Source: an uncultured Victivallales bacterium (GTDB taxonomy: Bacteria; Verrucomicrobiota; Lentisphaeria; Oligosphaerales; JAFGRS01). From it: DNA of 37,078 nucleotides. The notes under the pieces are model-generated. The model did not search any database. It was not told where the DNA came from and was given only the letters and a program-made list of their open reading frames with translations. The stretch spans positions 1 to 37,078 of the forward strand of contig CAIZKT010000239.1 in NCBI GenBank assembly GCA_903933565.1, given 5' to 3'. The translations under genes and the position numbers were made by a program. This document shows positions 5,328 to 32,327 of the stretch, in pieces. Each line of letters opens with the position of its first letter. Position 1 is the stretch's first letter.

Positions 5328-5556
5328 AGGGACCTCGATCAAGGTTTGACCACGGAGTTGTGTGCCGAGCCTGGACTCCTGCCGCAACCTGTTCGCAGAG
5401 GCCCGGTTTAGGCCTGCCCCAGTCCACCCCGTTAATGTACCCGGTATCGGTGGGTCCGCCAGGGTCCTGCCGTCGGGCGCCCGGCAGCGCCCCCGCGAAG
5501 GGTCGGCAGACGGACCGCAGCCCGCGGACACCGCAAAAAAAGCGCCCCTGTCCACG

Positions 5557-11567: not shown

Positions 11568-12932
11568 TCACGGTGGCGTCAGGAGGCTCCTTGCCAGGTC
11601 AGCCGCCAGTCGCTGCCAGGCCTCAGGCGCGGCGGCGAAGGGCTGCGTCACCACCCGGTACCGCCACGTGCGCCCCGGCTCCACCGTGGCGTTGCTGAAC
11701 ACCACAAAGTAGTGCTTGCGGTAGCGCTCCGGCATGTCCCAGTAACGCACTTCCCAAGGGAGCTCCGCAGGGACCTCGAGAACAGCGGTCACCGCGCCCT
11801 TGCCGAGGGTCTCGCTGAACACGGCGGACCACCTGACCGGGGCGCTGACCTTCATGCTCTTGTCGTCCACGAAGCGGCCCTCTACCCTCTGCCCGTCAAG
11901 GCGTTCCGCCAGGAAATGGCTCATGGCTGGCACCCACGGATGCATGAAGTGATAGAGGAGGTTGAGCGCCACGGGCTTCTCGGCCGCCAGGACGACCTCC
12001 TCGTCGATGCGGTTGTCCTTCACCGTGATGGTGGTGTCAAGGACCAGGTCCCGGATACGCGAGCGTTTGCGCAGAGCAACACGGTCGGCGGTATACGAGT
12101 CCTTGGGGAGTACCTCCCGCACGCCGTTCACCTCCAAAGCCAGGTCATCGACCTGCTCAGTCTCCCCGTTCTCGGTATGGCCTGAGCCGATCAGTCCGGT
12201 GCCCTTAACACTAGCGACGCTGCCGTAGTGACTGCCGAACACGTCCATGCAGACGCGGGTGCCCTGGTAATCGATCCGGTACAGCGTCCAGAATGAGCGA
12301 CTCTCGAAACGCACCTCCAGATCCTGTGAGCGCACCAGGATTGAGGCGGGCCAACCGGCGAACTTGCCCGGTTCCTGCGCCGAGATGCGGACCTCGTCCA
12401 TCCAGGCCTCACCCGTACACTTGCCGCTTGGTTCGTGGAAAGACAGCCGCAGGTGGATCGCATGGGCCCCAGCGGGGTAGGCCTTGTCGGTGCCGGGGCC
12501 GAAGCGCGTGGCCCGCTGCACCCAATCGTGCGGCGCCGAATCCGTCCGCCAGCTCTGGACGGCATACTGAACCAGGCGCTTGCCGGCGGCGTCAAGCACG
12601 CAGATGGAGAAGGCGGCAATACCGCTCTCGAGCCCACCGAACTTGAGCCGGGCACTGACCTCATAGGCCTTGGTCGGGTCGAGTTGCTGGCCGAGGATCA
12701 GTAGCTCGGAGTCCAGGCCGAGGGTGGCGCCTTGGGCGCGCAGGCGGACGGCACTGCCCTGGGCTCCTGCGACTGACCCTACCGACACCATGGCGGGCTC
12801 GCCCGGCACCAGCTTCCAGCCCTCCAGTCCCTGCTCGAAGTCACCGTTGATGATGAGCGGTTCGGCCGCCCACGCCACTGTGGCAGTGGCGAGCAGCCAC
12901 GCGGCTCCGGTTCTCAGCCAGGCTTTCACCAC
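11568..12932 (-). CDS. secreted protein with N-terminal CBM4/9-like jelly-roll domain; C-terminal part of unknown function
   Basis: The GTG at 12932 is preceded by AAGGAG plus 6 nt. Signal peptide VVKAWLRTGAAWLLATATVAWA. The NGDFEQGLEGWKL motif is typical of CBM4_9-like modules. Same strand as the next two genes. Confidence 0.6.
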   Translation of the reverse strand: MVKAWLRTGAAWLLATATVAWAAEPLIINGDFEQGLEGWKLVPGEPAMVSVGSVAGAQGSAVRLRAQGATLGLDSELLILGQQLDPTKAYEVSARLKFGGLESGIAAFSICVLDAAGKRLVQYAVQSWRTDSAPHDWVQRATRFGPGTDKAYPAGAHAIHLRLSFHEPSGKCTGEAWMDEVRISAQEPGKFAGWPASILVRSQDLEVRFESRSFWTLYRIDYQGTRVCMDVFGSHYGSVASVKGTGLIGSGHTENGETEQVDDLALEVNGVREVLPKDSYTADRVALRKRSRIRDLVLDTTITVKDNRIDEEVVLAAEKPVALNLLYHFMHPWVPAMSHFLAERLDGQRVEGRFVDDKSMKVSAPVRWSAVFSETLGKGAVTAVLEVPAELPWEVRYWDMPERYRKHYFVVFSNATVEPGRTWRYRVVTQPFAAAPEAWQRLAADLARSLLTPP

Positions 12933-13113
12933 GGCAAACTCCTTGGTTGCGCTTCTGCGGCCAGCTCCATACGGCGCCAGGCATACGGCCACCCGTTAAC
13001 ATGGAGTCCAAACCCGCGCTGTCCATGGCGACAGGGGTGCAGGTCAGTTTCGTAGGGGCTTCTGCCTGGCACGGCGGGGCGCCGGTCGGTTCAGGGGTGG
13101 TCGGGGCTGCTGG

Positions 13114-13209
13114 GGGACGGTCGAGGCCGACCGGCGCTCCACGCCTGGCGCCCGTCTGGCGCGAGGCGGATTGGGACGGTCGAGGCCGACCGGCGCTCCA
13201 CGCCTGGCG
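13114..13209. repeat. two perfect 37-bp direct repeats (GGGACGGTCGAGGCCGACCGGCGCTCCACGCCTGGCG) at 13114..13150 and 13173..13209, period 59 bp
   Basis: Read directly. Each copy contains the small hairpin CGGTCG-aggc-CGACCG. They lie in the divergent intergenic region between the gene starts at 12932 (-) and 13299 (+). Confidence 0.9.
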
Positions 13210-13298
13210 ACAGGTGGGCGCGGCGACGACGGCGCGTGTGGACGGTGTTGGCGTCGGCTGTTATGTTGCGGAGTCTCCCGGTCGTCTCCGAGATCAGC

Positions 13299-14972
13299 AT
13301 GGCTGCTTCTACCCTCCACAACATCGCTCATTTCCTGCCCGAGTGGGCGCTGGCGGCGCCGTTGCGCCAGGCGCTGCTGGTTCCGTCTCGGTCGGGGGGG
13401 AGCGGCGCCTCGGCGTGGACCGGCTGGACCTTCGCCGAACTCGATGCGGCCTGCGACCGGCAGGCCCACGCCCTGCGGCGGCTGGGGGTACAGCGCGGCA
13501 TGCTGACGCTGCTGATGGTCAGGCCGGGGCTGCCTTTCTACGCGCTGACCTTTGCGCTGTTCAAGATTGGCGCTGTGCCGATCTTCATTGATCCCGGCAT
13601 GGGCTGGCTCAATTTCATGGACTGCGTGCGGCAGTCGGGTCCGGAAGTTTTTCTGGGGATACCTGCGGCGCACGTGCTGCGGGTGTTGTTTCCGGCGCGC
13701 TTTCGCAGCGTCCGCATCAAGGCTGTTCTTGGGCGTCTGCCGTTCCCTGGGGCGCGGCGGCTTGGCGAGGGTAGCGAGGGGGTCGCGGCAGCGTTTCCCA
13801 CGGAGCCGGTGGAGGCCGACGCTCCGGCCGCCGTGCTGTTCACCACGGGTAGCACGGGCCCAGCCAAGGGCGTCGCGTACACCCACCGGGTCTTCATCAC
13901 CCAGGTCGAGCTGCTGCGGCGCGAGTACGGCATCGGCCCCGGCGATGTCGACCTGCCCTGTTTTCCGCTGTTCGGCCTGTTCAGTACGGCTCTAGGGGCG
14001 ACGGCGGTCATCCCTGACATGGACCCTTCGCGGCCAGCGCAGGTGGATCCACGGCGCATTGTCGAGCCGATTCTGACGCATGGAGTGACCTACTCCTTCG
14101 GCTCGCCGTCCCTCTGGGGTCGGGTCGGGCAATACTGCGCCCAGAGCGGCCAGCGCCTTCCGAGCCTGACTCGCGTGATCATGGCCGGGGCGCCGGTACC
14201 GGCAGCAGTCCACGAGACGCTCTTGGAGTACGTGCTGCCGCCGGGTGCGCAAACGTTCACGCCCTACGGCGCCACGGAGGCGCTGCCGGTCACGACCTTC
14301 TCCGGCAGGGAGATGTTGGACGAGACCGCGGCGGCGACCCGCATGGGTGCGGGCATGTGCGTCGGCCGCCCGTTGCCGGAGATCACCCTGCGTATCATCC
14401 GCATTTTCGCTGCGCCGATCGAGCGCTGGCGTGACGATCTGGTAGTGCCCCCGGGGCAGATCGGCGAAGTCGTGGTCAAGGGCCCTGTGGTGACCTCGCA
14501 GTACCACCTTCTTCCGGAGTCCACGCGCCGCGCCAAGATTGCGGATGGCGACACGGTCTGGCACCGCATGGGCGACGTGGGCTATCTTGACGAAGGCGGT
14601 CGGCTGTGGTTCTGCGGTCGCCTGGCACACCGGGTGCAGACAGCGCACGGCACCTCGTACAGCGTCTGCTGTGAAGCGATCTTCAATGCGGTACAGGGGG
14701 TTCGCCGTTGTGCCCTCGTCGGGGTCGGCGTCGACCGAGCCCGTCAGCGCCCGGTCATCGTCATCGAGCCGGAGGCGGGGAGTTTTCCGGCTTCGCGCTG
14801 CAAGCGTGCGGCCTTTACGGAGCGTCTTCTGGCTGCTGGTGCGGCGAGCGCGCTGACCTGCGGCATCCGAGACGTGCTCTTCCACCGGGCCTTCCCCGTG
14901 GACATCCGGCACAATGCGAAGATTCGGCGTGAGGTGTTGGCGCAGTGGGCCAGTCTGCGGCTGAAAGGGTGA
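13299..14972 (+). CDS. AMP-dependent synthetase/ligase (fatty acyl-AMP/CoA ligase family), 557 aa
   Basis: The ATG at 13299 starts MAASTLHNIAHF. Adenylation cores present: LFTTGSTGPAKGV, TPYGATE, GEVVVKGPVVTSQY, WHRMGDVGYLDEGGRLWFCGR, and a C-terminal HNAKIRR lysine. Confidence 0.85.
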   Translation: MAASTLHNIAHFLPEWALAAPLRQALLVPSRSGGSGASAWTGWTFAELDAACDRQAHALRRLGVQRGMLTLLMVRPGLPFYALTFALFKIGAVPIFIDPGMGWLNFMDCVRQSGPEVFLGIPAAHVLRVLFPARFRSVRIKAVLGRLPFPGARRLGEGSEGVAAAFPTEPVEADAPAAVLFTTGSTGPAKGVAYTHRVFITQVELLRREYGIGPGDVDLPCFPLFGLFSTALGATAVIPDMDPSRPAQVDPRRIVEPILTHGVTYSFGSPSLWGRVGQYCAQSGQRLPSLTRVIMAGAPVPAAVHETLLEYVLPPGAQTFTPYGATEALPVTTFSGREMLDETAAATRMGAGMCVGRPLPEITLRIIRIFAAPIERWRDDLVVPPGQIGEVVVKGPVVTSQYHLLPESTRRAKIADGDTVWHRMGDVGYLDEGGRLWFCGRLAHRVQTAHGTSYSVCCEAIFNAVQGVRRCALVGVGVDRARQRPVIVIEPEAGSFPASRCKRAAFTERLLAAGAASALTCGIRDVLFHRAFPVDIRHNAKIRREVLAQWASLRLKG

Positions 14973-15062
14973 TGCAGGCGAGTGGCGGTCGCAACCGCGT
15001 TCTCCGTCCCGCTGTGCTTTGGCCGGTCGGGTGGCCGGTCCTGTTCCCGACGTTGCCAGGCG

Positions 15063-15099
15063 CAGAAAAAGACAACGCCCGGCCGTGGCGGCCGGGCGT
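15063..15099 (-). terminator. Rho-independent terminator of the small minus-strand gene
   Basis: On the minus strand, ACGCCCGGCCG-cca-CGGCCGGGCGT forms an 11-bp GC stem, followed by TTGTCTTTTTCT. It begins 24 nt after the stop at 15123. Confidence 0.6.
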
Positions 15100-15122
15100 G
15101 GCGAACTCACTCAACCCTGCAG

Positions 15123-18656: not shown

Positions 18657-19484
18657 TCACCCCGCGAACGTATCGAAGCCCCAGGGCTCGCGCCGCCGGA
18701 ACTTGGCCTTGTAGCCGGTCTTGACCAGGCCGCCGTCTTCCAGGCAGGCGATGCAGGCGCGGGTGCAGGCGGCGGCGAGGCGGTTGGGTGGGGCGCTGGC
18801 GCACGAGGTATCCGGGAAGGCGCCGTTGACACAGAGGCTGCACTTCTCCTTGGAGAACGTGCCAACGCCGAGCACCTGCTCACCGACCTGGCGCGGGGTC
18901 GGAATCGCGGACAGCGCCTGGGCCGGACAGCCTTTGACGCAGGCCAGGCAGCGCTCACGCCCACACACCTGGCCGCTCGCGAAGGGCGCGTCGGGCTCGA
19001 TGCTGGCTTCGGTAAAGAGCATGCCCAGCGCCTGCCGAGCGCCAAAGCGTGGGGTCAGAAAGATGCCGTTGTAGCCGATTTCGCCCAGTCCGGCCAGTTG
19101 CGCGGCCAGGTTGATATCCGGCGTCACGTTGGGGGCTGGTTTGCCCTCCTTGAAGACGATGCCGTCGGGCCAGCGCTCCGGCGCCAGCGGGCTGCAGGGA
19201 ACCGCCAGGAAGCCGTTGTCCTCGAGGCTGCGGCACAGGTAGTAGCCCGCTGTCGGCGGCAGATAGCGGTCCACCCGCAACCACAACGTGCCCTCCTCGA
19301 TGCCGCGGAAGTAGCTTCGCGGAATGGACTTACCGAACACGACGATGGACTTGGCCTTGGGCAGAATGCTCAGCGGGTTCCACTGAGGCTCGACGTCGCG
19401 GTAACCATCGAGTGCCGCGACGCCCAGGAGATCCAGCCCGAGGGACGTGGCCCACTGCCCCAGCTTATCTCTGGAGATATCCAT
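18657..19484 (-). CDS. QueG/RdhA-superfamily-like Fe-S protein, paralog 3 of 3 (275 aa)
   Basis: The ATG at 19484 starts MDISRDKLGQW and overlaps the upstream stop as TGATG, with GGAGGTGGTG as SD. Motifs: AAQLAGLGEIGYNGIFLTPRFGARQ, CGRERCLACVKGCP, CSLC, ACTRACIAC. C-terminus REPWGF. Confidence 0.7.
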   Translation of the reverse strand: MDISRDKLGQWATSLGLDLLGVAALDGYRDVEPQWNPLSILPKAKSIVVFGKSIPRSYFRGIEEGTLWLRVDRYLPPTAGYYLCRSLEDNGFLAVPCSPLAPERWPDGIVFKEGKPAPNVTPDINLAAQLAGLGEIGYNGIFLTPRFGARQALGMLFTEASIEPDAPFASGQVCGRERCLACVKGCPAQALSAIPTPRQVGEQVLGVGTFSKEKCSLCVNGAFPDTSCASAPPNRLAAACTRACIACLEDGGLVKTGYKAKFRRREPWGFDTFAG

Positions 19485-20446
19485 CACACCACCTCCCCTT
19501 TGACGCCGCCGCTGAGTTTGCCGCGGGTCTCCAGGTGCGAATTGCAGGCCTGCACGCAGCCGACGGCCCCGCAGACGGACCCAGGACGCCCGCCCTGCCC
19601 GTGCTCGGCGCTGCCGTTGGCGATCAGCTTCACGTACTCGATCCGCTCGGACAGGGCGAACCCCAGGCGGTAGGCTTCGTACCAGGTGTAGTTCGTCTTC
19701 TCGACCTCCATGTCCATGCCGGGCAGGTCTTTGCTGACAAAGGGTGAGGCTTTTGGATTGAGGCCCCAGTGAGTGACTTTGCACTTGCCGCAATCGACGG
19801 CGCCCCAGGCGAACTCGCGCCCTTCGACGGCGATGGCCTCTCGTTCCCCGCCCAGGGCCAGGCCCGGGCAGTGGCGCACGCAGGCCATGCAGCTGTCGCA
19901 GAGCGGCCCCTGGAACAGCGGGTCAGGCTCCAATTCGGCATCCGTAAGAATAATATCGAAGCGCTGGCGCGGGCCGAACTGCGGCGTCAAGAAGACCTTC
20001 GACCAGCCGAACTCACCCAGTCCCGCCAAGGCCGCCGCGACGCGCATGTGCAACATGATGCAGGGGGGCCGTTTACCCTTGGCCAAGGGCTCCCGCGCCG
20101 GGGGCGCCTCGTCGAGGAGCGTGTGGCCTCCCGGGGACGACACCGCCTCGTAGCCGTGGTCCTCCAGGAGGGCGGCAATGGCGCCGGTGGCGCTACCCAG
20201 GGAACTGTAGATGCCGCTGCCGTAACCGTAGATCCAGTAGGTGGACCAGTCCGTGCCTTCCTGAATGCCCTTGTAGCTGCCTTTCAGGATTCGGCTGGCG
20301 TAGACGATGATCGACTTTGCCTCCGGAAACAGCGAGGTAGGATGGGTTTCCGGCGGTCCGTCCTTGAAGCGTTCGAGGCTGGCGATACCGCACAGGTCGG
20401 CGCCGCCTTGGACCGCGCAGTCTTTGACCATCTTGGCGGTCAGCAT
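19484..20446 (-). CDS. QueG/RdhA-superfamily-like Fe-S protein, paralog 2 of 3 (320 aa)
   Basis: The ATG at 20446 starts MLTAKMVKD and lies 1 nt after the upstream stop (TGAgATG), with GGGGGTGGTG as SD. Motifs: GADLCGIASLERF, LFPEAKSIIVYA, AAALAGLGEFGWSKVFLTPQFGPRQ, CDSCMACVRHCP, CGKC, CGAVGCVQAC. Confidence 0.7.
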   Translation of the reverse strand: MLTAKMVKDCAVQGGADLCGIASLERFKDGPPETHPTSLFPEAKSIIVYASRILKGSYKGIQEGTDWSTYWIYGYGSGIYSSLGSATGAIAALLEDHGYEAVSSPGGHTLLDEAPPAREPLAKGKRPPCIMLHMRVAAALAGLGEFGWSKVFLTPQFGPRQRFDIILTDAELEPDPLFQGPLCDSCMACVRHCPGLALGGEREAIAVEGREFAWGAVDCGKCKVTHWGLNPKASPFVSKDLPGMDMEVEKTNYTWYEAYRLGFALSERIEYVKLIANGSAEHGQGGRPGSVCGAVGCVQACNSHLETRGKLSGGVKGEVV

Positions 20447-20447
20447 C

Positions 20448-21329
20448 TCACCACCCCCTCTTCTCATCCGGCCGGTAGCCCCAGGGCTCACGGCTGCGGA
20501 AGGGGATCCGGTATCCGGTATCGTGCGTCGCCTCGAAGTGTGCTATGCAGGCGCGTCCGCAGGCTGCGGAAAGGCGATTCGGCAAGCCGCCACGGGCAAA
20601 CTTGCTCTTGGCGTCGCCCTTGACCTGATTGTTCTCGATGTCGAAATGGAGTTCGTCGGCGCCGGCGAAGTACTTGGAGTCGCCGGAGACGCCATTGGGG
20701 CAAGCCCGGCAGGCGTTGGCGTTGATCAGGCCCAGTGACTGGGTTCGGCCGTTGCAGGTAATCGGGGTCGACTCGTGGGCCGAGATCGCCTGCAAGGGGC
20801 ACTGTTTGACGCACTCCAGGCAGTGGTCGCAGAGGGCTTCCCCGGACGGCGGGCTGGCCTCGATCTCCAGGTCGGTCACCAGCAGCCCCAGCATCTGACG
20901 GATGCCATACTTCGCGGTCATGAACATGCCATGGTAGCCGATCTCTCCCAAGCCCGCCGCCGCGGCGGCATACTCGACCGACAGTCGGAGACTATTGGGC
21001 GCCCCGAGCCCGGGGCGTACCGGCTGCCGCGGCATTCTGGGCGCGTCCAGAGGGGCATAGGGGACGCACTCGTGGCCCAGGCTCTCGAGGTAGCGCAGGA
21101 GACCGTCGAAGGTGGTGATCCAGCGGCCGGGGGTCTGCCAGAGCGAGCCCTCTTCCATCGCGCGGAACTGCCCTCGACGGATCTGCGAGCCCACCACGAC
21201 CACCGACTTGGCGTCAGGGAAGAGGCTGAGGGGGTGCTCGTTGGGCGGCAGCCCGACAAAACTGCTCAGCGGTGGCACGCCCACGAGGTCGTACCCCGCG
21301 TGCTTCCTGAACTCAGCGAACGACAGCAT
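20448..21329 (-). CDS. QueG/RdhA-superfamily-like Fe-S protein, paralog 1 of 3 (293 aa)
   Basis: The ATG at 21329 starts MLSFAEFRKH and is preceded by AAGGAGAGG. Motifs: YDLVGVPPL, LFPDAKSVVVVG, AAAAAGLGEIGYHGMFMTAKYGIRQ, CDHCLECVKQCP, CRAC, ACGRAC. C-terminus REPWGY. Confidence 0.7.
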   Translation of the reverse strand: MLSFAEFRKHAGYDLVGVPPLSSFVGLPPNEHPLSLFPDAKSVVVVGSQIRRGQFRAMEEGSLWQTPGRWITTFDGLLRYLESLGHECVPYAPLDAPRMPRQPVRPGLGAPNSLRLSVEYAAAAAGLGEIGYHGMFMTAKYGIRQMLGLLVTDLEIEASPPSGEALCDHCLECVKQCPLQAISAHESTPITCNGRTQSLGLINANACRACPNGVSGDSKYFAGADELHFDIENNQVKGDAKSKFARGGLPNRLSAACGRACIAHFEATHDTGYRIPFRSREPWGYRPDEKRGW

Positions 21330-21399
21330 GTCCGCAGCCTCTCCTTTCCGTCGGCAAGGATCCACGCCAGGTTCCGTCCAGCGCGGGCGCCGCGCCCGT

Positions 21400-24132
21400 T
21401 CACGGGACCAACTGGAGCAGCCCTGCCGTATCCACCTGCCAGACCTCGGCGCCAGTCAGGGTCCAGACCATCCAGGAATCGTCGGCGACCCGGCGGATGT
21501 TCAGGTTGAACGGCAACTCCTTCAGGGTGGCCGGATCGATCCCGGCGGCATCCATGGGTATGCGCCATTCGCCGACCCAGCGGTCGGGGGCGACCGTGGC
21601 CGCGAACTGCACCGCTGCGCCGAGCTGTTGCGCCTGCTCCGCGGTCGCCCCGGCCGCGCTCACACTCTCGAACTTGCCGTTGGGAAAGCCGCGCAGATTG
21701 AAGATGGGATTGCCATAGCATAGGCTCTTGGCGTGGGAGGGACTGCGGAAGGCCAGTTCGATGGCATCAACCTGGCCCCAGGCGCCCTCGGCCTTCAGCG
21801 GTTGGGTCGGGTCCAGCGGATTGACGACCAGCAGGTACAAGGCGGTGCCATCCCAGGCGGCCCAGGCCTGGGAGACCTGCTTGGAGGGCGTGCCGCACGC
21901 CGCACTGGCACAGCGCAAGGCGGTGCTGGGGTCTTGCACCCAGTCCTCGGCTTTGCCGTCGATGCTGAGGCTGCCCGGCGCCACCCGGCGAGCGGGGGGT
22001 TTGGGCACCGCGCCGCGCGTGATCCGTGTGGGCGCCTGGTCCGGGAGCGGTGCGTGTTGCACTGGCCAGGTGACCCGAAACTCATCCTGGCGCAGGCCGA
22101 TCTTGTCCACCGGAAGCGCCTGGAAACCGAGCGCCCATACCGGCGACTCCGGCCTGAGGCGGAAATCCTGTTTGGCCGCATCCACAAAGAGCGGATCGCC
22201 CTCGGTGAAGTTTCCCTCCAGGATCAGCAGCGGGCGCGCCTCGGCACTGACTTCGTCCCAGCGTCCGCCGACGCTGAGGTTGTGGGCGATACGGTTCCGC
22301 TTGGGCTTCTCCGGTTCATCATCGAGCATCCCCACCAGTTGCGGGTAACGCTCCTTCCAGGGCGATTCCTTGTACGGCATTTGCTTCAGGTTTTCCGGTT
22401 GGATCGTGGTGGCGCCGTAGTTGTATTTGCCCATGCCTCGCGCGTCGACGTGCAAGGCGGGTTTGCAGTCGACGAAGATGTTGTTTTCGACCACGTTCTC
22501 GCGTCCGCCGCCGATGAAGGCGGCGCGAGTGACCTTGTAGAAGATGTTGCCGATCATGCTGTGGCCGCTGAGGATGTCGTCGAGGTAGATACCGACGCAG
22601 CCCTGGCCGCGGAAGCCGTTGATGTGGTGCAGGTAGTTGTAGCGGAAGACGGTGCCTTGGAACGACCAGTTACGGCCGCCGTAGATGGCGCCGGCGTCGT
22701 TGGACTCGTAGCAGACGCTGTGGATCTCGTTATACTCGACTACGTGGTCGTTGCCGCTGAAGCCGATGGCTTCGTGCGGGGCGTCGTGGATCAGGTTATG
22801 CGCCACCCGGTTGCCGACGCCGTTGCACTGCACGCCGGGCTGATACATGCGGCACCAGCGGCTGTAGTGGTAGATGTGATTGTTCTCAGCGTAGAGCCCG
22901 GCCGGTGTGAGCGTCCTACGGTCGCCGCCGTCGAGGGTGACGCCGCCCAGGCCGGTGTCGGTGATGTCGCAGCCGAGCACGCCGTTCTGCGTGCCGCCGC
23001 CGATCGTGACCGCCCAGCCGCCGGTGTTGCGGAGCACGCACCCGGCGACGCGATTGCCCGTACCGCCGCGGATCGAGACCGCGGTGCCGCGACAGGCCTC
23101 CAGGATGAAGCCGCGGACGGTGATCTGCGCGGCATCCTTCATCACGATCAGCGTATCAAGCACTGAAACCGTCGGACGCTGGGCGGGCGAGGCTGGCGCT
23201 GAGCCGTCTCCCGCCGGTGGCCAGAAGTAGAGCAGTCCCGCCGCACGGTCCAGGTACCACTCGCCCGGGCTATCGAGCTCGCACAGCAGGTTGAAGCCGT
23301 AGAACCAGCGATCTTTACGGTAGCCGAAAGTGTGATACGGCGGTTTGACCGCCAGGACGTGCTTGTCCGGCTCGATGCTGGCGATCGGGTGGCGCTGGTC
23401 GGACCAGTCGTGGTACCAGTAGCCGTGGACCCAGCCGTCGGGCTCCTGCAGCCAGCGCGCCGGGCGGTCGCCCTCGTAGACGATCCGCCCTTCCTTGCAC
23501 ATGTCCTGCCCGCGGTCGTTCTTGGTCACCGGCCAGGCCACGTCGGCAATGCGGATAAAGCCGTCGTTGGGCCAGCGCGCCAGGGTCATGGGCCGGTCGC
23601 CACAGAACAGCTCCAGCCCCGGCCCACCGCGGCTCGTGTTCCAGTCCTGCTTGCCGTAGTCCATCACCCCCAGCGCCTTGAGGTCGGCCTGGAGCACATG
23701 CGCTCGCGCCGCCTCGTCCAGCCGAGCGAGGACGGCGGGGTCGGTGACCGGGACCAGGTTGGTGACCGCGCGCCCGCCGCTCAGTCGCACCTCGGCCCCA
23801 GGCGCGGCGCGGTAGGTGATCGGGCTGTCGGCAGTACCCGCGTCGGCGGCCGTGAGTTCAAAGGGCTGGACCAGCTGGTAGGTGCCCGCTGCCACCTCTA
23901 CCGTGACCCCGCCGGAGGGTAGTTTGCCGGCCGCCTTGAGTCGGCGAATCTCGTCGCGGGCGCGCTCCAGGGTCCGAAACGGCCCGGCGGTCGGGTCGGG
24001 CGGGGCGCGCTGGGCGCGGGCGCCGGAGCAGGCGTCGTCCCCGTCCGTCGCCACAAAGAGCGTGGCAGGGACGGCGGCGACCGCGGACGTAAGGATACAC
24101 GCGGCGGAGCACACCCAGGCAGAGGTTGTCAT
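21400..24132 (-). CDS. secreted right-handed parallel beta-helix protein (pectate-lyase-fold glycan-active enzyme) with C-terminal CBM9-like domain, 910 aa
   Basis: The ATG at 24132 gives the signal peptide MTTSAWVCSAACILTSAVAAVPA, with GGGGAG upstream. The opening LFVATDGDDACSG...PFRTLERARDEI...GGVTVEVAAGTY is typical of beta-helix enzymes. Repeated GxxNxV/I coils are present (GTGNRVAGCVL, GTQNGVLGCDI, VGNRVAHNLI). The C-terminal DGKAEDW...AWDGTALYLLV block is CBM9-like. Confidence 0.8.
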   Translation of the reverse strand: MTTSAWVCSAACILTSAVAAVPATLFVATDGDDACSGARAQRAPPDPTAGPFRTLERARDEIRRLKAAGKLPSGGVTVEVAAGTYQLVQPFELTAADAGTADSPITYRAAPGAEVRLSGGRAVTNLVPVTDPAVLARLDEAARAHVLQADLKALGVMDYGKQDWNTSRGGPGLELFCGDRPMTLARWPNDGFIRIADVAWPVTKNDRGQDMCKEGRIVYEGDRPARWLQEPDGWVHGYWYHDWSDQRHPIASIEPDKHVLAVKPPYHTFGYRKDRWFYGFNLLCELDSPGEWYLDRAAGLLYFWPPAGDGSAPASPAQRPTVSVLDTLIVMKDAAQITVRGFILEACRGTAVSIRGGTGNRVAGCVLRNTGGWAVTIGGGTQNGVLGCDITDTGLGGVTLDGGDRRTLTPAGLYAENNHIYHYSRWCRMYQPGVQCNGVGNRVAHNLIHDAPHEAIGFSGNDHVVEYNEIHSVCYESNDAGAIYGGRNWSFQGTVFRYNYLHHINGFRGQGCVGIYLDDILSGHSMIGNIFYKVTRAAFIGGGRENVVENNIFVDCKPALHVDARGMGKYNYGATTIQPENLKQMPYKESPWKERYPQLVGMLDDEPEKPKRNRIAHNLSVGGRWDEVSAEARPLLILEGNFTEGDPLFVDAAKQDFRLRPESPVWALGFQALPVDKIGLRQDEFRVTWPVQHAPLPDQAPTRITRGAVPKPPARRVAPGSLSIDGKAEDWVQDPSTALRCASAACGTPSKQVSQAWAAWDGTALYLLVVNPLDPTQPLKAEGAWGQVDAIELAFRSPSHAKSLCYGNPIFNLRGFPNGKFESVSAAGATAEQAQQLGAAVQFAATVAPDRWVGEWRIPMDAAGIDPATLKELPFNLNIRRVADDSWMVWTLTGAEVWQVDTAGLLQLVP

Positions 24133-24152
24133 GCGGACTACTCCCCAATCGG

Positions 24153-26093
24153 CTACTTCATCTGCGGCAGGATGATGCCGCGCAGGATGACCTTCTGGCA
24201 GAGGAGGAACACCAACAGCACCGGCACCGAGGTGATGGCGTAGGCGGCCATGACGACATAGGGCTGAGTGGCGAAGGTGCTCGAGAACTGATAGGTCCAG
24301 ACCGACACCGTCCACATACGCTGGTCCTGACAGACGATCAGGGCCCACTCCCAGCCGGCGTAGGCGCTGATGAAGGCGTTGAGCATGCTTACGGCGAGGA
24401 TGGGCTTGACCAGCGGTAGCGAGACCAGGTAGAACACCTGTATTTCGGAGGCGCCGTCGATGGTGGCCGCCTCAAACAGCTCCTGGGGCAGCGAGTCGAA
24501 GAAGCCCTTGAGCAGAAAGATGGTCATGCCGTTGGCGGCGCCCGGCAGCACGAGGGCCGCAAAGGTGTTGAGCAGATTCAGGTCACGCAACAGCAGAAAG
24601 CCCGGGATGGCGGAGACGGCGGCTGGGAAGGCCATGGTGGTGAGGCAAAAGACGATGATTTTCTCGGTCGGGCGCAGCCGGAACCGGCTCAGGGCGTAGG
24701 CGCAGAGCGGGTTGACGGTCAGGGTGATAGTGATGGCGAGCGCCACGAGGATAAGGGTGTTGCGCACCGCCGGGCCGCGGAGGAACAGGTGATCGAATAC
24801 CGCCCCGTAATTGCCCAGGGCGTCCTGCAGGGTAATGGACCACTCGCGGTCCGCAAAGGTCGTGAGAAGCGCCTGGCGGTAGGGAATGTGCAGTTGCTCG
24901 ATGCCGGCCAACTGCAGTCCGTAGGCGGCGTTGACGCCAGCGCGGTCGACGTGTTTGCGCAGGGCGAACTTCTGGAAGGCCAACTCGGGCAGGGTGTCAC
25001 GGATCTGCCAGTCCTGGACCGGGACCGCGGTGCGCAGAAAATCGAACCAGACGCCGCTGAACTTCTCGTCGGGCACCGTCGAAGTGAGCGGCAGATCATC
25101 CCAGGTCTGGACCGGGCGCTCAAGCACGCGCCCGGCATAAGCGGGAGTGCGAAAGCGGTCGACCAGGAAGGCGCGGAACGCCGCCGTGCGCTCTGCCGTC
25201 ACCGGAAACGCGACGTGGCGTAGCGCGAAGCTGTTCAGGAGGTACGCCTGCCACAATGTGCGCAGCGGCGCCGGGGCGTCTGCCGGGACCGGAAAGGGCA
25301 GGGCGCTGACCTCGCCTAGCGCCTTGCCTTCGTCACCGGCGGCGCGCACGTAGCTCTCCCAGGTGAAACGCAGGGCCGCCGGCCGCAGCAAGTTGGCTGG
25401 GGCGCCGACGAAGCAGGACGAGTAACGGTTCTGCCGGTAGGCCTGCCGGAAGGCGAGCAGATCCTGGTAGCGCGCGTCTTCCAGCGGGGTGAACGAAGGC
25501 AGGTCGAAGGCTTCGCCGCTCCACTCGCTGGCCGCGATCTTCATGAAGTCGTCGACGGAGAGTTCCCAGGCGGCATTGAAGCGATCCAGGGTCCGGTAGC
25601 GGTCCTTGAGGAAGAGGCCGATGTACTGGATGTTGTAGGAGACCGTGGTTTCGCGGAGGTCCCAGCCGTCGATAAACTCCGTGTAGTCGCGGGCCGCGGC
25701 CCGGAGGTCGGCCCGGCGCGCGGGGTCCGCCAGCTCGCGGAGTTGCTTCCGGGCCCAGGCATCGCTCTGCGCGCGCTCATCGCCGATGGCGGCCCAAATC
25801 TGCCAGTCCTCGGGACAGTCGGGGAAGAAGCTCTTCATCTGCTGGACCGAGTTGCGGGGCTGCGGCGGGAAGACCAGCGCCAGCAGCCGCATCAGGCGGT
25901 CCTCGCGCGACATTAAGAAGCGCGGCAGCAGGCTGCGGCGCTCGTAGTCGAAGGGATTGCTCACCGAGCCGGTCAGCATCACCAGGAAGGGGCAGACCAT
26001 GGCCACTGCGCCCAGGGTGAGCAGCACGTAAATGCCCACGATGAGGAAGCGTCCCCTGGCTGACTTGTAGTCTGTCGGGCCAATGATGGGCAT
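24153..26093 (-). CDS. ABC carbohydrate-transporter permease (MalG-like) with a periplasmic insertion of about 390 aa after TM1, 646 aa
   Basis: N-terminus MPIIGPTDYKSARGRFLIVGIYVLLTLGAVAMVCPFLVML is a positive cytoplasmic stretch followed by TM1. A long soluble segment follows, then the permease core. The EAA loop reads FDSLPQELFEAATIDGASEIQVFYLVSLPLVKP. The start lies 4 nt after the upstream stop. Confidence 0.85.
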   Translation of the reverse strand: MPIIGPTDYKSARGRFLIVGIYVLLTLGAVAMVCPFLVMLTGSVSNPFDYERRSLLPRFLMSREDRLMRLLALVFPPQPRNSVQQMKSFFPDCPEDWQIWAAIGDERAQSDAWARKQLRELADPARRADLRAAARDYTEFIDGWDLRETTVSYNIQYIGLFLKDRYRTLDRFNAAWELSVDDFMKIAASEWSGEAFDLPSFTPLEDARYQDLLAFRQAYRQNRYSSCFVGAPANLLRPAALRFTWESYVRAAGDEGKALGEVSALPFPVPADAPAPLRTLWQAYLLNSFALRHVAFPVTAERTAAFRAFLVDRFRTPAYAGRVLERPVQTWDDLPLTSTVPDEKFSGVWFDFLRTAVPVQDWQIRDTLPELAFQKFALRKHVDRAGVNAAYGLQLAGIEQLHIPYRQALLTTFADREWSITLQDALGNYGAVFDHLFLRGPAVRNTLILVALAITITLTVNPLCAYALSRFRLRPTEKIIVFCLTTMAFPAAVSAIPGFLLLRDLNLLNTFAALVLPGAANGMTIFLLKGFFDSLPQELFEAATIDGASEIQVFYLVSLPLVKPILAVSMLNAFISAYAGWEWALIVCQDQRMWTVSVWTYQFSSTFATQPYVVMAAYAITSVPVLLVFLLCQKVILRGIILPQMK

Positions 26094-26097
26094 CCGG

Positions 26098-28320
26098 CTA
26101 TACTCCCTTCGCCTGCCGGAAGTCGACCCGGCGCAGGATCTGCAACTGCAGGTAGGTGAAGCCCATCAGCATGCTGCCGAGGATCCAGGCGTACGCCGAG
26201 GCCAAACTGAAACGCAGGTTGACGTAGGCCTCCTGCCAGATGGCCAAGCTCATGACCATCGTTTCCTTGCCTGGGCCGCCGAAGGTGAGCAGGAAGATGT
26301 GGCCCATGGTCTGGAACGTGCCGATGAAGGCCCCCACAAAGTTGATCAGCACCAGCGGCGCGATGGTCGGTAGGGTGATGTGTCTGACCTTGCCGAAGAC
26401 GCCCAGGCCGTCGACGCTGGCGGCTTCGTAGAGGTCCTCGGGCACCGACTTCAGCGCGGCCAGGTAGATGAGACTGCTGATGCCAGCGCCGGCCCAGATG
26501 CCGGGGATGATGACGCAGGCCATCACCGTCGACGGATTGCCCAGCCAGTCGATGGGCTGAAACCCGAAGCGACCGAGCAGCCACAGCAGGAGCCGGTTGA
26601 TGGTGCCGGAGGCGGTGCCGACGTACATGTCCTTCCACATCAGGGTGACCACCAGTCCACTGGTCATCTGCGGCAGGAAGAAGAGCGTGCGGAAGAGGAC
26701 CTTCAGCCGTGGCACCTCGGCCAGCAGCAGGGCGAGGAAGATCGGCGTGAAGAAGGCCAGAAATAGGTTCCAGAGTACGAAGCGGAAGGTCGTGAAGATG
26801 TAATGGAAGAAGTTCGGGTCGGTGCCGATGGCGATGAAGTTGGTGAGCCCGACCAGGGCCGTCTTGCCCGCAATGCGGTAGTCCTGGAAGGCCATGACCA
26901 GACCGCGGCCCAGCGGGTAGTAGCCCCAGAGCGTGATCGAGACCAGGGCGGGGGCCATCATGATCCAGGGTAGCCAGCCCTTGTAGACGCCGGCCAGGCT
27001 CGGCTTGCGCCGGAGCTGGCTGCGGATGATCAATACCACCATCACCGCCATGAACGCGGCCATCGCGCCGACGATCAGGCGCGCCTTGGGCCGCAGCGCC
27101 TCGATCTGCTCGGGGGGGCGTTCGTACATGATCCCGGTGTTGGCATCCCGCTCCAGTTGCTGGAGTGCGGCCTTGTAGTCAAAATCCTTGCCGCTCGGCC
27201 GCAGCACCAGGTCGATCGCCTCCCGCTGGTAGTACTCGCGAAACTGCAGCCAGCGCCCCGTGAAGGGCTCCACAATCTCGAGGAATTTGCCGGCTTCGAT
27301 ATCGGCCCACAACTGCCGATTCTCGGGCGGCATCTGGCGGATGTAGTCGTCCAGTTCGAGTCGGCGCAGGTCCCGCGGATTCATGAACTTGGCCTGACCG
27401 GCGGCGACCTTCTGACGGATGACCTCTTCCTTGCCTTCGGGACTGGTGATCAGCGTCATGAGTTGCCAGACCCGGTCACGGTAGGCCTTGCGCGCCTCCG
27501 GCGTGGCGCCGCCGCGGTCGAGCACGTCCTTGCCGATCATGAAGAAGCAATTCGAGTGCTGCAGCACGGAGCGCTGGTCCGTGGTCATGGCGGGGAAGGG
27601 CATCATGCCGACGTCTTCCGGCTCGACCCCGGAGCTGGCAAACTCGGTCATGTCACCGGACCAGAGCGGGTACATGGCCAGGTCGCGCCCCATCCGTCGG
27701 ATGACCCGGTTGATCTCTTCGACGTTACACAACCGCAGGGAGCCTTCGACGACGTCCTCGGGCTTGAACGCGAGGGTCCGGCCCTGGTACGCGACCGCGC
27801 CGCGGGTGACGTCGGCAGGGGTCAGAGTGACCGGTTCGCCGGTCTCGGGATCGCGAATCCAGGGCTCCCAGCGCAACCGGTGATAGAAGCCGACCGCGGC
27901 CGTGCATTCCGGGCTGGCCACGTTGCAGCGCCAGGTGGGCGTGACGTTCTGCAGGTCTTCGTGCGTGTCCGGCGCGATGAACTCGGTATCCTGTTCGTTG
28001 AACTGGTAGACCTTCCCGGTTGTGGGGCTCTTGCGGTACTGCACGTTGATGCTGGAGCCGGTGGTGGCCACCCAGGGGGCAAACGACCAACTCGCCGAGA
28101 TGAACTCGACCTGGAAAACCTTGGTCTCAGGGTTGTAGAGCTTGCGGCACCAGCGCAGGTACTCGTCCCAGGTCTGCGGCGGCTGCATGGGGTCGAGTCC
28201 GGCCTTGCGCAGCAGCCGTTTGCTGTAGAGGATGCCGACGTAGGTGCCCTCGCTGAAGGGCAGGGAGTAGGGCTTGCCATCCACGGTGCAGACCAGGCGG
28301 AAGATCGGCTTGATCTTCAT
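26098..28320 (-). CDS. solute-binding-protein-like domain fused to a MalF-like ABC permease (740 aa as listed; probably the 3' part of a longer gene)
   Basis: The N-terminal roughly 400 aa look like an SBP family-1 domain (TVDGKPYSLPF, ILYSKRLLRKAGLDP). A TM segment follows, LIVGAMAAFMAVMVVLIIRSQLRRK. The permease core has the EAA loop LKSVPEDLYEAASVDGLGVFGKVRHITLPTIAP. Confidence 0.85.
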   Translation of the reverse strand: MKIKPIFRLVCTVDGKPYSLPFSEGTYVGILYSKRLLRKAGLDPMQPPQTWDEYLRWCRKLYNPETKVFQVEFISASWSFAPWVATTGSSINVQYRKSPTTGKVYQFNEQDTEFIAPDTHEDLQNVTPTWRCNVASPECTAAVGFYHRLRWEPWIRDPETGEPVTLTPADVTRGAVAYQGRTLAFKPEDVVEGSLRLCNVEEINRVIRRMGRDLAMYPLWSGDMTEFASSGVEPEDVGMMPFPAMTTDQRSVLQHSNCFFMIGKDVLDRGGATPEARKAYRDRVWQLMTLITSPEGKEEVIRQKVAAGQAKFMNPRDLRRLELDDYIRQMPPENRQLWADIEAGKFLEIVEPFTGRWLQFREYYQREAIDLVLRPSGKDFDYKAALQQLERDANTGIMYERPPEQIEALRPKARLIVGAMAAFMAVMVVLIIRSQLRRKPSLAGVYKGWLPWIMMAPALVSITLWGYYPLGRGLVMAFQDYRIAGKTALVGLTNFIAIGTDPNFFHYIFTTFRFVLWNLFLAFFTPIFLALLLAEVPRLKVLFRTLFFLPQMTSGLVVTLMWKDMYVGTASGTINRLLLWLLGRFGFQPIDWLGNPSTVMACVIIPGIWAGAGISSLIYLAALKSVPEDLYEAASVDGLGVFGKVRHITLPTIAPLVLINFVGAFIGTFQTMGHIFLLTFGGPGKETMVMSLAIWQEAYVNLRFSLASAYAWILGSMLMGFTYLQLQILRRVDFRQAKGV

Positions 28321-28790
28321 CCAGCCGTCCCACTTAGCCTGTCGGCGTCAATCTGGCCATTCTTGTCCGGGGTGCCCGCCGCGGTGAGCTTGGGCCGACC
28401 GTCGGCCAGCACCCCATCCTCGCCGATCCACTCCGTCAGCGGCACGGCTAAGTTCTGCGAGACCGCCTGCCGGATGTCCATCTCGAAGATGTCGGGGCCG
28501 CGGTTGCCGGCCATGGACATGCCCAGGCTCGCCGTCCAGGCGCCGCCCGGCATGCGCAGGCTCTCCCACTGCTTGAGATGGACATTGGGGTTCGCCGCGA
28601 AGAACTCACGGATCGTCTTGGGCTGACGGCCCTGCGCGTTGTAGCGCGAGGTGATCGAGATGTTGTACTCGACCGCCTGAGCCAGGGTGGCAGGCGCGGC
28701 CAGCACCAACAGGAAGGGGAGCAGGATCAGGGTCGGAAGCCGCCGCAGGTTCGCCGCCGCCGATCTCAGATGAGCACTGTTCCTGAGCAT
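28317..28790 (-). CDS. signal peptide plus N-terminal part of an SBP-like domain (157 aa); probably the 5' part of the 26098..28320 gene, separated by a frame change
   Basis: The N-terminus MLRNSAHLRSAAANLRRLPTLILLPFLLVLAAPATLAQA has an AQA-type cleavage site. The SBP-like sequence continues to LAVPLTEWIGEDG. The stop overlaps the next ATG as ATGA. See finding. Confidence 0.6.
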   Translation of the reverse strand: MLRNSAHLRSAAANLRRLPTLILLPFLLVLAAPATLAQAVEYNISITSRYNAQGRQPKTIREFFAANPNVHLKQWESLRMPGGAWTASLGMSMAGNRGPDIFEMDIRQAVSQNLAVPLTEWIGEDGVLADGRPKLTAAGTPDKNGQIDADRLSGTAG

Positions 28791-28890
28791 GTCATCCTTG
28801 CACGAGTTACCCCGCCGCGGCGGCTGTTGCGAGAAGCAGTCCGTACCGGCAGACAGTGTAGACCCTGGAGCTCAAGAATCAACACCGGAC

Positions 28891-32006: not shown

Positions 32007-32327
32007 GCCGCGCTGGGAAGAGGCGGTTCGCCGCGGCGAACGCGGGTCAGTGGAACCGCCCCTGTACTTGCCTCTCCAAGCTGCGGGACGACACCTGCAC
32101 CGGTGGCTCTACCAAACGGGGGTTCTTGCAAAGCCCTTCTGAACGGGTATGCTTAGAGCCTCTCCTACCCCCGGCGTACGGCCTGCTGAAAAGGTACGCA
32201 CAACCCTGGCTGGGCGCCCGTGTCTGAGCCCTGTGTAGGGGCTTGTGGACGGGTTACGTCGGCGGGAGTTCTCCCCCAGGCCGGGGTGAGTACGGGTCCC
32301 TGGTGTCGAGCTTGCGAGGGCGTGACG

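Follow-up and report, generated by a model that had tools for sequence, protein, structure and literature searches.

A conserved triplet of paralogous iron-sulfur genes from a Victivallales bacterium, proposed to encode a heteromeric class III corrinoid/[4Fe-4S] reductase

The class III corrinoid/[4Fe-4S] reductases were described in a 2021 paper as comprising the reductive dehalogenases (RDases) and the epoxyqueuosine reductase QueG (PMC7585037). Here, three adjacent paralogous genes (A, B and C, together called the triplet) were characterized on contig CAIZKT010000239.1 from an uncultured Victivallales bacterium. The window, i.e., the whole stretch of DNA that was analysed, was 37,078 nucleotides (nt) long with a G+C content of approximately 66%, and the triplet was located at positions 18657–21329 of its minus strand. 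The encoded proteins were predicted to have the class III fold, fell into none of its characterized subfamilies, and may together form one enzyme.

An active-site tyrosine is common to all class III enzymes (QueG Tyr101, PceA Tyr246 and NpRdhA Tyr426), and the pair Tyr246–Arg305 has been proposed as the proton-transfer device of RdhA (PMC4646009). QueG contains an Asp-Tyr-His motif (D100-Y101-H102 in S. thermophilus) and the catalytic D130 (PMC4646009), as well as a C-terminal HEAT-like tRNA-binding domain of approximately 130 amino acids (aa), Leu257–Leu385 in B. subtilis (PMC5175355). Catabolic RdhAs contain a fused vestigial copy of the core domain, which is free of cobalamin and mimics the PceA dimer interface, usually or often together with a C-terminal PDOR reductase (PMC10463259).

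PceA (8q4h, 4uqu) was the best match to the triplet both in sequence and in fold. Both have the N-terminal GADLVG strand, the AGLG loop, the GP(R/N)xR string including the Arg305 column, the T(D/N) strand and CxxCxxCxxxCP followed by a split second cluster motif, and a tyrosine of B was aligned, weakly, to Tyr246; besides, two such modules make up the functional PceA dimer. However, PceA is a homodimer of chains of 460–500 aa with large N- and C-terminal extensions, insertions, a twin-arginine translocation (TAT) signal and an RdhB anchor, whereas the triplet modules are 275–320 aa, predicted to be cytoplasmic and anchorless, and have diverged paralogs as partners. NpRdhA/BhbA (4ras, 6zxu) is cytoplasmic and TAT-less, as predicted for the triplet, and its Lys488 column corresponded to Arg162 of B in a profile alignment. 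Its degenerate core copy packs on the active one (PMC10463259), which is the logic proposed below for A and C on B. In NpRdhA this copy belongs to the same chain (fusion in cis) and is free of iron-sulfur clusters, and the PDOR reductase domain is found in many members, whereas the triplet proteins are separate chains (tandem fusions occur in relatives), each with two [4Fe-4S] motifs and none with a reductase domain. The triplet proteins are predicted to have the same fold and cofactor layout as QueG (5d08, 5d6s); unlike QueG, the triplet would be multi-subunit, no equivalent of Arg141 was identified in it, and catabolic-type regulators precede it in relatives. Finally, CblC/MMACHC (3som, 3sby) resembled the triplet proteins by Foldseek in its nitroreductase-type module for base-off corrinoid binding, but it has no ferredoxin domain, and sequence similarity to the triplet was undetectable.

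Three coupled genes of the class III fold

The first-pass annotation of the contig had described three adjacent minus-strand paralogs with coupled junctions and no leader peptide, and the coordinates, motifs and junctions were all found as described:

20448–21329, minus strand: subunit A, 293 aa, short-type paralog
20943–20957, minus strand: AGLGE of A
20892–20909, minus strand: YGIRQM of A
20796–20831, minus strand: first cluster motif of A, CDHCLECVKQCP
20700–20711, minus strand: CRAC of A, cluster motif
20547–20561, minus strand: CGRAC of A, cluster motif
20444–20465, minus strand: A/B junction, reading GGGGGTGGTGAgATG (TGA, g, ATG)
19484–20446, minus strand: subunit B, 320 aa, long-type paralog, universal family member
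20219–20230, minus strand: YGYG of B, with Tyr75
20012–20026, minus strand: AGLGE of B
19961–19978, minus strand: FGPRQR of B, with Arg162
19865–19900, minus strand: first cluster motif of B, CDSCMACVRHCP
19757–19783, minus strand: CKVTHWGLN of B, with the isolated Cys222, followed by a conserved insert of about 70 aa
19544–19573, minus strand: CGAVGCVQAC of B, cluster motif
19482–19503, minus strand: B/C junction, reading GGGGAGGTGGTGTGATG (overlapping TGATG, 1-base overlap)
18657–19484, minus strand: subunit C, 275 aa, second short-type paralog
19080–19094, minus strand: AGLGE of C
19029–19046, minus strand: FGARQA of C
18924–18965, minus strand: first cluster motif of C, a Cx4CxxCxxxCP variant
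18831–18842, minus strand: CSLC of C, cluster motif
18753–18767, minus strand: CTRAC of C, cluster motif

Pairwise BLASTP comparisons showed 38% identity between A and C (E 3e-53), 30% between A and B (E 2e-38) and 35% between B and C (E 3e-35); the three are paralogs, with similarity far above chance. The blocks DL(V/C/L)G(V/I), P(D/E/K)AKS, AGLGE(I/F)G(Y/W), G.RQ and T(D/E)...E were present in all three proteins, as was the first cluster motif (CGRERCLACVKGCP in C), and the second cluster motifs were split. A PNRL..AAC..ACIA...REPWG tail was common to A and C. Shine-Dalgarno-like G-rich runs were located within the 3′ end of A (GGGGGTGG) and within the 3′ end of B (GGGGAGGTGG), ahead of the gene that follows. 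The N-termini (MLSFAEFRKHAGYDLVGV, MLTAKMVKDCAVQGGADLCGI and MDISRDKLGQWATSLGLDLLGV) contained neither an RR motif nor a hydrophobic segment, and since the conserved G-x-DL-x-G-(V/I) strand begins at residues 12–18 of A, B and C, no room is left for a Sec or TAT leader, as had been claimed.

Pfam searches gave only sub-threshold matches to 4Fe-4S (Fer4) domains, and the N-terminal 160 residues were matched by no model. Local NCBIfam matches were obtained to QueG TIGR00276 and to the reductive dehalogenase model TIGR02486 (E 3e-10 to 1e-5, 24–40 bits), confined to a stretch of approximately 65 residues that runs from the AGLG loop up to the first cluster motif, and no family-specific model for the triplet proteins was found in NCBIfam. 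Sequence searches of the Protein Data Bank (PDB) with A alone (phmmer) showed PceA 8q4h as the best match (E 2e-8), which was also reached at about 5e-18 with an A-family or B-family profile; further matches were PceA 4uqu, NpRdhA and QueG. By hhalign, the B-family profile aligned to residues 202–372 of PceA, a sequence rebuilt from printed alignments, with a probability of 99% (E 2e-17, 162 columns). The stretch aligned to TIGR00276, TIGR02486, PceA, QueG and NpRdhA consisted of the AG(L/I)G loop and the strand ending in T(D/N), immediately ahead of the first cluster motif. In an alignment of 218 family members, on which the comparisons of long and short subunits below are based (B numbering), G142, G144, R160 and T168 were near-invariant.

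AlphaFold models with the family alignments as input reached a predicted local distance difference test score (pLDDT) of 92.3 and a predicted template modelling score (pTM) of 0.90 for B, and a pLDDT of 84.8 for A. A Foldseek search of the PDB gave 46 matches per model at E ≤ 1e-3, exclusively to PceA, QueG or NpRdhA (E about 1e-9 to 5e-4); the next matches were to the B12 chaperone MMACHC/CblC (E ~1e-2), and the top 50 consisted of B12 binders only. By sequence matches and predicted fold, A, B and C thus belong to the class III superfamily of RdhA and QueG, each chain consisting, as predicted, of a nitroreductase-type, CblC-like corrinoid domain combined with a two-cluster ferredoxin domain. 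The earlier placement in this superfamily, made from the order of the blocks, agrees with the local NCBIfam matches, the PDB profile matches to PceA and the exclusive Foldseek matches.

Searches with QueG- and RdhA-type models gave significant local matches, yet no characterized subfamily fitted. The scores to TIGR00276 were 39.6, 24.3 and 36.8 bits compared to a curated cutoff of 200, and a full-length match was not reached; TIGR02486 gave 33–39 bits compared to a cutoff of 160, and Pfam Dehalogenase PF13486 gave no match at E ≤ 1. All three proteins stop 19–32 residues past the last cluster cysteine, which excludes the HEAT-like tRNA-binding domain, and this domain was found neither by Pfam nor in the AlphaFold model. 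The Asp-Tyr-His motif was missing as well: where it would align, B reads Y-G-Y-G, and neither A nor C has a Tyr. Identity as QueG was rejected on these three grounds (score, domain and motif). Identity as a respiratory RdhA was also rejected: besides the sub-cutoff scores, no TAT signal peptide was found in A, B or C, no rdhB-type gene for a small membrane protein was present beside the triplet in the window, and no recurrent rdhB candidate was found among the gene calls of relatives or in a census of their neighbours within three genes on either side. The vestigial duplicate domain and PDOR reductase of catabolic RdhAs were not found by Pfam or in the AlphaFold models of A and B, the triplet proteins being single-module chains. 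Orthologs are labelled 'hypothetical protein' or '4Fe-4S binding protein' by PGAP, and some are labelled 'epoxyqueuosine reductase' (QueG) or 'ferredoxin' by JGI. The first-pass view that the triplet fits no known family is thus upheld, as all three proteins failed every membership test for QueG and respiratory RdhA and lacked the additional domains of catabolic RdhAs. Its description of them as shortened forms of queG had to be given up, since they score higher to RdhA than to QueG and B has a Tyr and an Arg that aligned to the RdhA pair, and not Asp-Tyr-His.

Unequal subunits in a wider family of paralog assemblies

Homologs of A formed approximately 70 clusters (57–99% identity), all from Lentisphaerota, Victivallales and Kiritimatiellia-type metagenome genomes. 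When one genome per species was scanned, 22 loci were detected; 19 of them carry a Lentisphaerota label (Lentisphaeria/Lentisphaerae, Victivallales), one a Kiritimatiellae label and two a Verrucomicrobia label. The cultured Oligosphaera ethanolica DSM 24202 is the source of one of the 22. The order A-B-C was present in every locus long enough to show it, both in the 22 species-level genomes and in metagenome contigs. This conservation of the triplet as a coupled unit favours a hetero-oligomer and supports the suggestion of the first-pass annotation. Among these loci, B was the best conserved subunit (65–88% identity, compared to 57–79% for A and C), and it showed 54–61% identity to homologs from Firmicutes.

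More than 1,300 homologs of B were found, including sequences from Christensenellales and Eubacteriales (the 54–61% identity range), Armatimonadota and candidate division WS1. Exhaustive searching of 1.84 billion representatives with a profile gave 370 clusters at E ≤ 1e-30, 1,909 at ≤ 1e-10 and 6,580 at ≤ 1e-3, the family size of approximately 370 being counted in clusters at 50% identity. The family reaches over Lentisphaerota, Kiritimatiellia, Armatimonadota and Firmicutes. In approximately 104 non-redundant loci, members were almost always adjacent to each other, and 83 of the 114 junctions between adjacent members overlapped or were at most 20 nt long. The commonest form was a short subunit (~260–310 aa) directly upstream of a long B-type subunit (~340–375 aa), and the long subunit was nearly always found beside one to three short paralogs or fused to one. 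A triplet from Eubacteriales (301, 340 and 274 aa) showed 38, 59 and 51% identity to A, B and C, respectively, and quadruplets of family members also occurred. Many representatives of 725–850 aa consisted of two modules fused head to tail, both with cluster motifs, and other longer members contained a second Fe-S-containing module. No unrelated domain was found in the longer members, their additional length being a second copy of the module, and such gene fusions are evidence that the modules work together. In one relative (locus L031, 153–2435, minus strand), a double module fused into one protein of 760 aa shares its operon with genes for an FAD_binding_2 flavoprotein, a short-chain dehydrogenase and an Old-Yellow-Enzyme-type reductase. 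An AraC regulator gene and a further set of three genes (281, 271 and 363 aa) are oriented divergently to this operon, and the region looks like a multi-reductase catabolic island.

Eight cysteines were found in each subunit. Those of A (Cys 167, 170, 173, 177, 207, 210, 257 and 261) were all invariant in the A subfamily, and C showed the same pattern; in B, Cys 183, 186, 189, 193, 222, 297 and 301 were invariant and C292 near-invariant. Judged from these patterns, each subunit has a cysteine set suited to two [4Fe-4S] clusters. The layout was CxxCxxCxxxC ... CxxC ... insert ... CxxxC in A and C, and CxxCxxCxxxC ... C ... conserved insert of 70 residues ... Cx4CxxxC in B. The '1 + 3' layout of the second cluster in B is like that of QueG and RdhA, and the insert of B is positioned at the site of the 'Fd-insert' that lines the active site of QueG (PMC5175355).

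All members share G142, G144 and E145 of the AGLGE loop, R160, Q161, T168, D169 and the cluster cysteines. Nearly all long subunits, in every phylum sampled, have in addition Y70, Y/F73, Y75, E113, R135 and R162. A minor subclass of long subunits departs from this pattern: column 73 is Met, column 113 often varies, and the Cys292 column usually holds Glu or Gly; its members are mostly extra paralogs. At the columns of the long-type signature, R160 included, A of the window reads P-W-T-P-E-R-M and C reads V-gap-gap-E-N-R-A, with the Tyr segment deleted; both are thus without the Tyr and the second Arg of the B-type signature. Short partners elsewhere have either kept Tyr and Arg (YFYEDRR type) or lost them (LGPEDRM type). 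By HMMER and hhalign independently, Tyr75 of B aligned to Tyr246 of PceA and Arg162 of B to Arg305 of PceA (= NpRdhA Lys488), and the Tyr column fell within a deletion in A (hhalign versus PceA). The three copies are therefore not equivalent, as the putative catalytic residues are kept by B alone.

Two further observations were made on the subunits. Residues 221–242 of A (approximately 20604–20669) are conserved among A orthologs (consensus YFAGAEELHFExxNNQVKGD) but were predicted to be disordered in the model of the monomer (pLDDT 38–56), and are a possible candidate for a subunit-interface element. The R135 column is almost always Arg in long subunits and mostly Asp or Glu in short partners; speculatively, these opposite charges could face each other at a pseudo-symmetric interface.

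A Pfam census of 288 proteins encoded within three genes of family clusters showed regulators to be the most frequent class (IclR 17, AraC 9, MarR 5), followed by GFO/IDH/MocA (14), SBP_bac_5 (6), xylose-isomerase-like TIM barrels (AP_endonuc_2; 4), ABC permeases (4), sulfatases (3) and glycyl-radical enzymes (2). Regulators were also the commonest immediate neighbours (n = 143; IclR 17, AraC 6, MarR 5, LacI-type 3), and the operon is therefore probably substrate-inducible. No fixed enzymatic partner or dedicated reductase was found in this census. A Kiritimatiellia locus reads IclR-SIS-GFO/IDH/MocA-GH20-short-long, and in a Eubacteriales locus AraC-A-B-C lies beside two GFO/IDH/MocA genes and a TIM barrel. 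The neighbours fit, weakly, an inducible catabolic enzyme acting on a small molecule derived from a carbohydrate or cyclitol. GFO/IDH/MocA proteins and the TIM barrels led among enzymatic neighbours, but each was found at a minority of the loci, so that the glycan-derived substrate suggested in the first-pass annotation is weakly supported.

In the window, a row of genes on the same strand lies ahead of the triplet: a URO-D-like gene, a 184-aa open reading frame (ORF), two ABC permease genes and the gene for a 982-aa beta-helix protein. The triplet had accordingly been described as the end of a glycan-import operon. The same-strand row was confirmed here, and the triplet itself was found in relatives, but none of the URO-D, 184-aa, ABC permease and beta-helix genes flanked it in any of approximately 25 related loci. 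All-versus-all clustering of flanking ORFs in Lentisphaerota loci gave a single recurrent neighbour, an IclR regulator, in four loci; other triplet loci carry FAD oxidoreductases, DUF4838/CBM9 proteins or GH20. With the window's operon genes absent from these loci, the triplet behaves as a self-contained three-gene cassette, and its placement behind a sugar-transporter row here is incidental and not conserved. The beginning of the cassette is likely marked by the following spacer:

21330–21399, minus strand: 70-nt spacer between the stop codon of the beta-helix gene and the ATG of A

AAGGAG is present in this spacer, 11–16 nt upstream of the ATG. A promoter scan around the triplet detected no sigma-70-type promoter (0 promoters), and a terminator scan found terminator-like sites within coding sequence only.

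Proposed enzyme and competing explanations

We propose that A-B-C is one cytoplasmic, soluble, heteromeric corrinoid/[4Fe-4S] reductase with B as the catalytic subunit and A and C as degenerate iron-sulfur partners, encoded by an autonomous inducible unit, and we put the chance that this is correct at about even. The three proteins would represent a distinct heteromeric branch of class III reductases built of minimal modules, each without TAT leader, membrane anchor, tRNA-binding domain or fused reductase. The catalytic role is assigned to B because it is the best conserved subunit and has the Tyr/Arg signature aligned to the PceA pair. B would hold a base-off corrinoid beside the proximal [4Fe-4S] cluster, and its Tyr75 and Arg162, perhaps together with Glu113, would act upon a substrate bound above the cobalt, as proposed for Tyr246/Arg305 in PceA; the B-specific insert of about 70 residues in the ferredoxin domain may form or close the substrate pocket. 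A and C would be degenerate in having lost the Tyr/Arg pair and kept the eight cluster cysteines. They would pack on B like the second PceA monomer or the vestigial domain of NpRdhA, and electrons from a low-potential donor, e.g., ferredoxin, would pass through their four [4Fe-4S] clusters. Judged by the rest of the superfamily, the reaction would be a two-electron reductive elimination by Co(I), with cleavage of a C-halogen or C-O bond, or opening of an epoxide. The substrate would be a small organic molecule, probably released in the breakdown of complex carbohydrates.

Several points weigh against this proposal. TM-scores to the solved class III enzymes were just 0.4–0.5, because the triplet proteins are much smaller than those enzymes. 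Taken alone, the match of the Tyr region to PceA is weak (HMMER conditional E 0.05), although two methods agree on it. In many two-gene systems the short partner keeps Tyr and Arg, so a degenerate partner is not a rule for the whole family. Besides, A and C retain the AGLGE, R, Q and T-D core, and the Asn of their APN motif aligned with PceA Asn272/QueG Asp130 in one alignment; for these reasons A and C may bind corrinoid and be active too. The link to carbohydrates comes from GFO/IDH/MocA and AP_endonuc_2 proteins, which are minority neighbours (14 and 4 of 288) and common in these genomes in any case. No B12 uptake, synthesis or riboswitch element was present near the triplet; an Rfam search of the window gave neither a B12 riboswitch nor any other RNA family, and no tRNAs were found.

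A wider version is that systems of long and short subunits constitute a third class III branch of obligate heteromers, which in anaerobic polysaccharide degraders would catalyse a non-dehalogenating elimination, e.g., deoxygenation or de-epoxidation of a metabolite derived from a sugar or cyclitol. We offer it tentatively, as a possible but somewhat doubtful extension of the proposal.

The best surviving rival is that the complex is a cytoplasmic catabolic reductive dehalogenase for natural organohalogens, such as halogenated phenolics or algal metabolites, with ordinary RdhA chemistry in a new subunit arrangement. Although an organohalogen is a serious alternative as the substrate, this explanation as a whole is judged unlikely. 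The PDB and NCBIfam scores do favour RdhA over QueG, the Tyr/Arg(Lys) dyad of RdhA is retained in B, as is the GPRxR string of PceA 8q4h and NpRdhA, and regulators of the IclR, AraC and MarR types often control genes for the catabolism of aromatic compounds. Set against this, the scores are far below the RDase cutoff, PF13486 is not matched, and neither dehalogenation-related nor aromatic-degradation genes lie nearby; the neighbours encode sugar oxidoreductases, TIM-barrel isomerases, glycoside hydrolases and transporters, and the hosts are fermentative glycan degraders. The cytoplasmic prediction by itself fits a dehalogenase, as 'cytosolic' RdhA clades without TAT signal are known (PMC12219181).

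Less probable again is loss of corrinoid binding, which would leave a multi-cluster, ferredoxin-like electron-transfer complex, or one with another cofactor such as flavin, serving another oxidoreductase. The core domain copy in NpRdhA shows that cobalamin can be lost (PMC10463259), and the fold is of the nitroreductase type (PMC4646009); furthermore, the iron-sulfur part alone nears the Pfam thresholds, and PF12831 FAD oxidoreductases recur near the triplet. However, the stretch best conserved with RdhA and QueG is the corrin-side core from AGLG to T-D, beyond the cysteines, the invariant Tyr, Glu and Arg of B argue for an active site, B12 binders filled the Foldseek top 50, and no constant partner enzyme is encoded nearby.

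It seems improbable to us that the three proteins are separate isoenzymes, each with its own substrate, which share an operon without forming a complex. Multiple paralogs per genome are frequent for respiratory rdhA genes, and all three proteins have the AGLGE/R-Q/T-D core and eight cysteines, but the fixed order and number across two phyla, the tight or overlapping spacing, the existence of fused two-module proteins and the loss of residues in A and C that complements their retention in B all speak for joint function. The last explanation, a QueG split into three subunits, is dismissed as highly improbable: JGI names several orthologs 'epoxyqueuosine reductase QueG', local TIGR00276 matches exist and conserved metabolic neighbours are missing in Lentisphaerota as for a housekeeping gene, but the scores of 24–40 bits are far below the cutoff of 200, the HEAT-like tRNA-binding domain (as defined in PMC5175355) and the Asp-Tyr-His motif are absent, and the relatives lie behind IclR/AraC regulators in catabolic loci.

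Surroundings in the window and significance

The gene content of the window as a whole was typical of a glycan degrader, including a sulfatase, a SASA esterase, a CBM9 protein, a ceramidase-like protein and a PF12831 protein. Convergent and downstream of the triplet are a TIM-barrel gene (weak IolE-like match) and a polysaccharide deacetylase gene. The other features examined were:

28891–30024, minus strand: URO-D-fold protein heading the transporter operon
28317–28871, minus strand: ORF of 184 aa
26098–28320, minus strand: ABC permease, UgpA/MalF-like
24153–26093, minus strand: ABC permease, UgpE/MalG-like
21400–24348, minus strand: right-handed beta-helix protein of 982 aa, directly upstream of the triplet
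13992–15110, 13044–13886 and 11568–12992, minus strand: three ORFs
4005–5555, minus strand: PF12831 FAD-dependent oxidoreductase (E 3e-96)
32190–37076, plus strand: AsmA/DUF748-type protein of more than 1,629 aa, running off the window end

The URO-D-fold protein showed weak NCBIfam matches to MtaA/CmuA methylcobamide:CoM methyltransferases (E 6e-14, far below cutoff), and the adjacent 184-aa ORF was considered as its corrinoid partner and rejected, as neither Pfam nor NCBIfam gave support. This ORF and the three listed at 11568–15110 had no Pfam or NCBIfam match at E ≤ 1e-3, and two of the four were flagged by codon bias. Both permeases have unusually long N-terminal extensions (~440–520 aa), and the one at 26098–28320 contains a short fragment of a solute-binding protein (residues 16–83); a separate gene for a full-length binding protein or an ATPase was not found among the ORFs scanned in the window. 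The beta-helix protein had no NCBIfam match, and its ORF overlaps the preceding permease ORF by approximately 195 nt, so its real start is probably internal. Homologs of the PF12831 protein were present less than 5 kb from the triplet in two other loci (L001, 5327–6637; L003, 7669–8946), which may reflect a loose association or the mere abundance of PF12831 in these genomes.

No description of a heteromeric, minimal class III family was found in the open literature searched. An RdhA survey of cold seeps and the RDase clades of Asgard archaea were considered and rejected as earlier reports, as they concern other clades, with PF13486, transmembrane helices or RdhB. The scaffold is known; new are the architecture of the subunits, the asymmetry between the paralogs, their distribution and, very probably, the substrate.

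If the proposal is true, class III would be extended by several hundred clusters at 50% identity that are covered by no Pfam or NCBIfam model, and the family would be the smallest form of this cofactor scaffold, built of paralogous subunits. It would offer a minimal, soluble, TAT-less scaffold for studies of Co(I) chemistry, and a natural pairing of active and degenerate paralogs in trans, in cis and in three-subunit form. Automatic annotation as 'QueG' or 'ferredoxin' inflates the queuosine and B12-dependence profiles inferred for these phyla. The presence of the triplet in the cultured O. ethanolica DSM 24202 makes the system experimentally accessible, and the enzyme would probably add a new reductive reaction to anaerobic carbon turnover.

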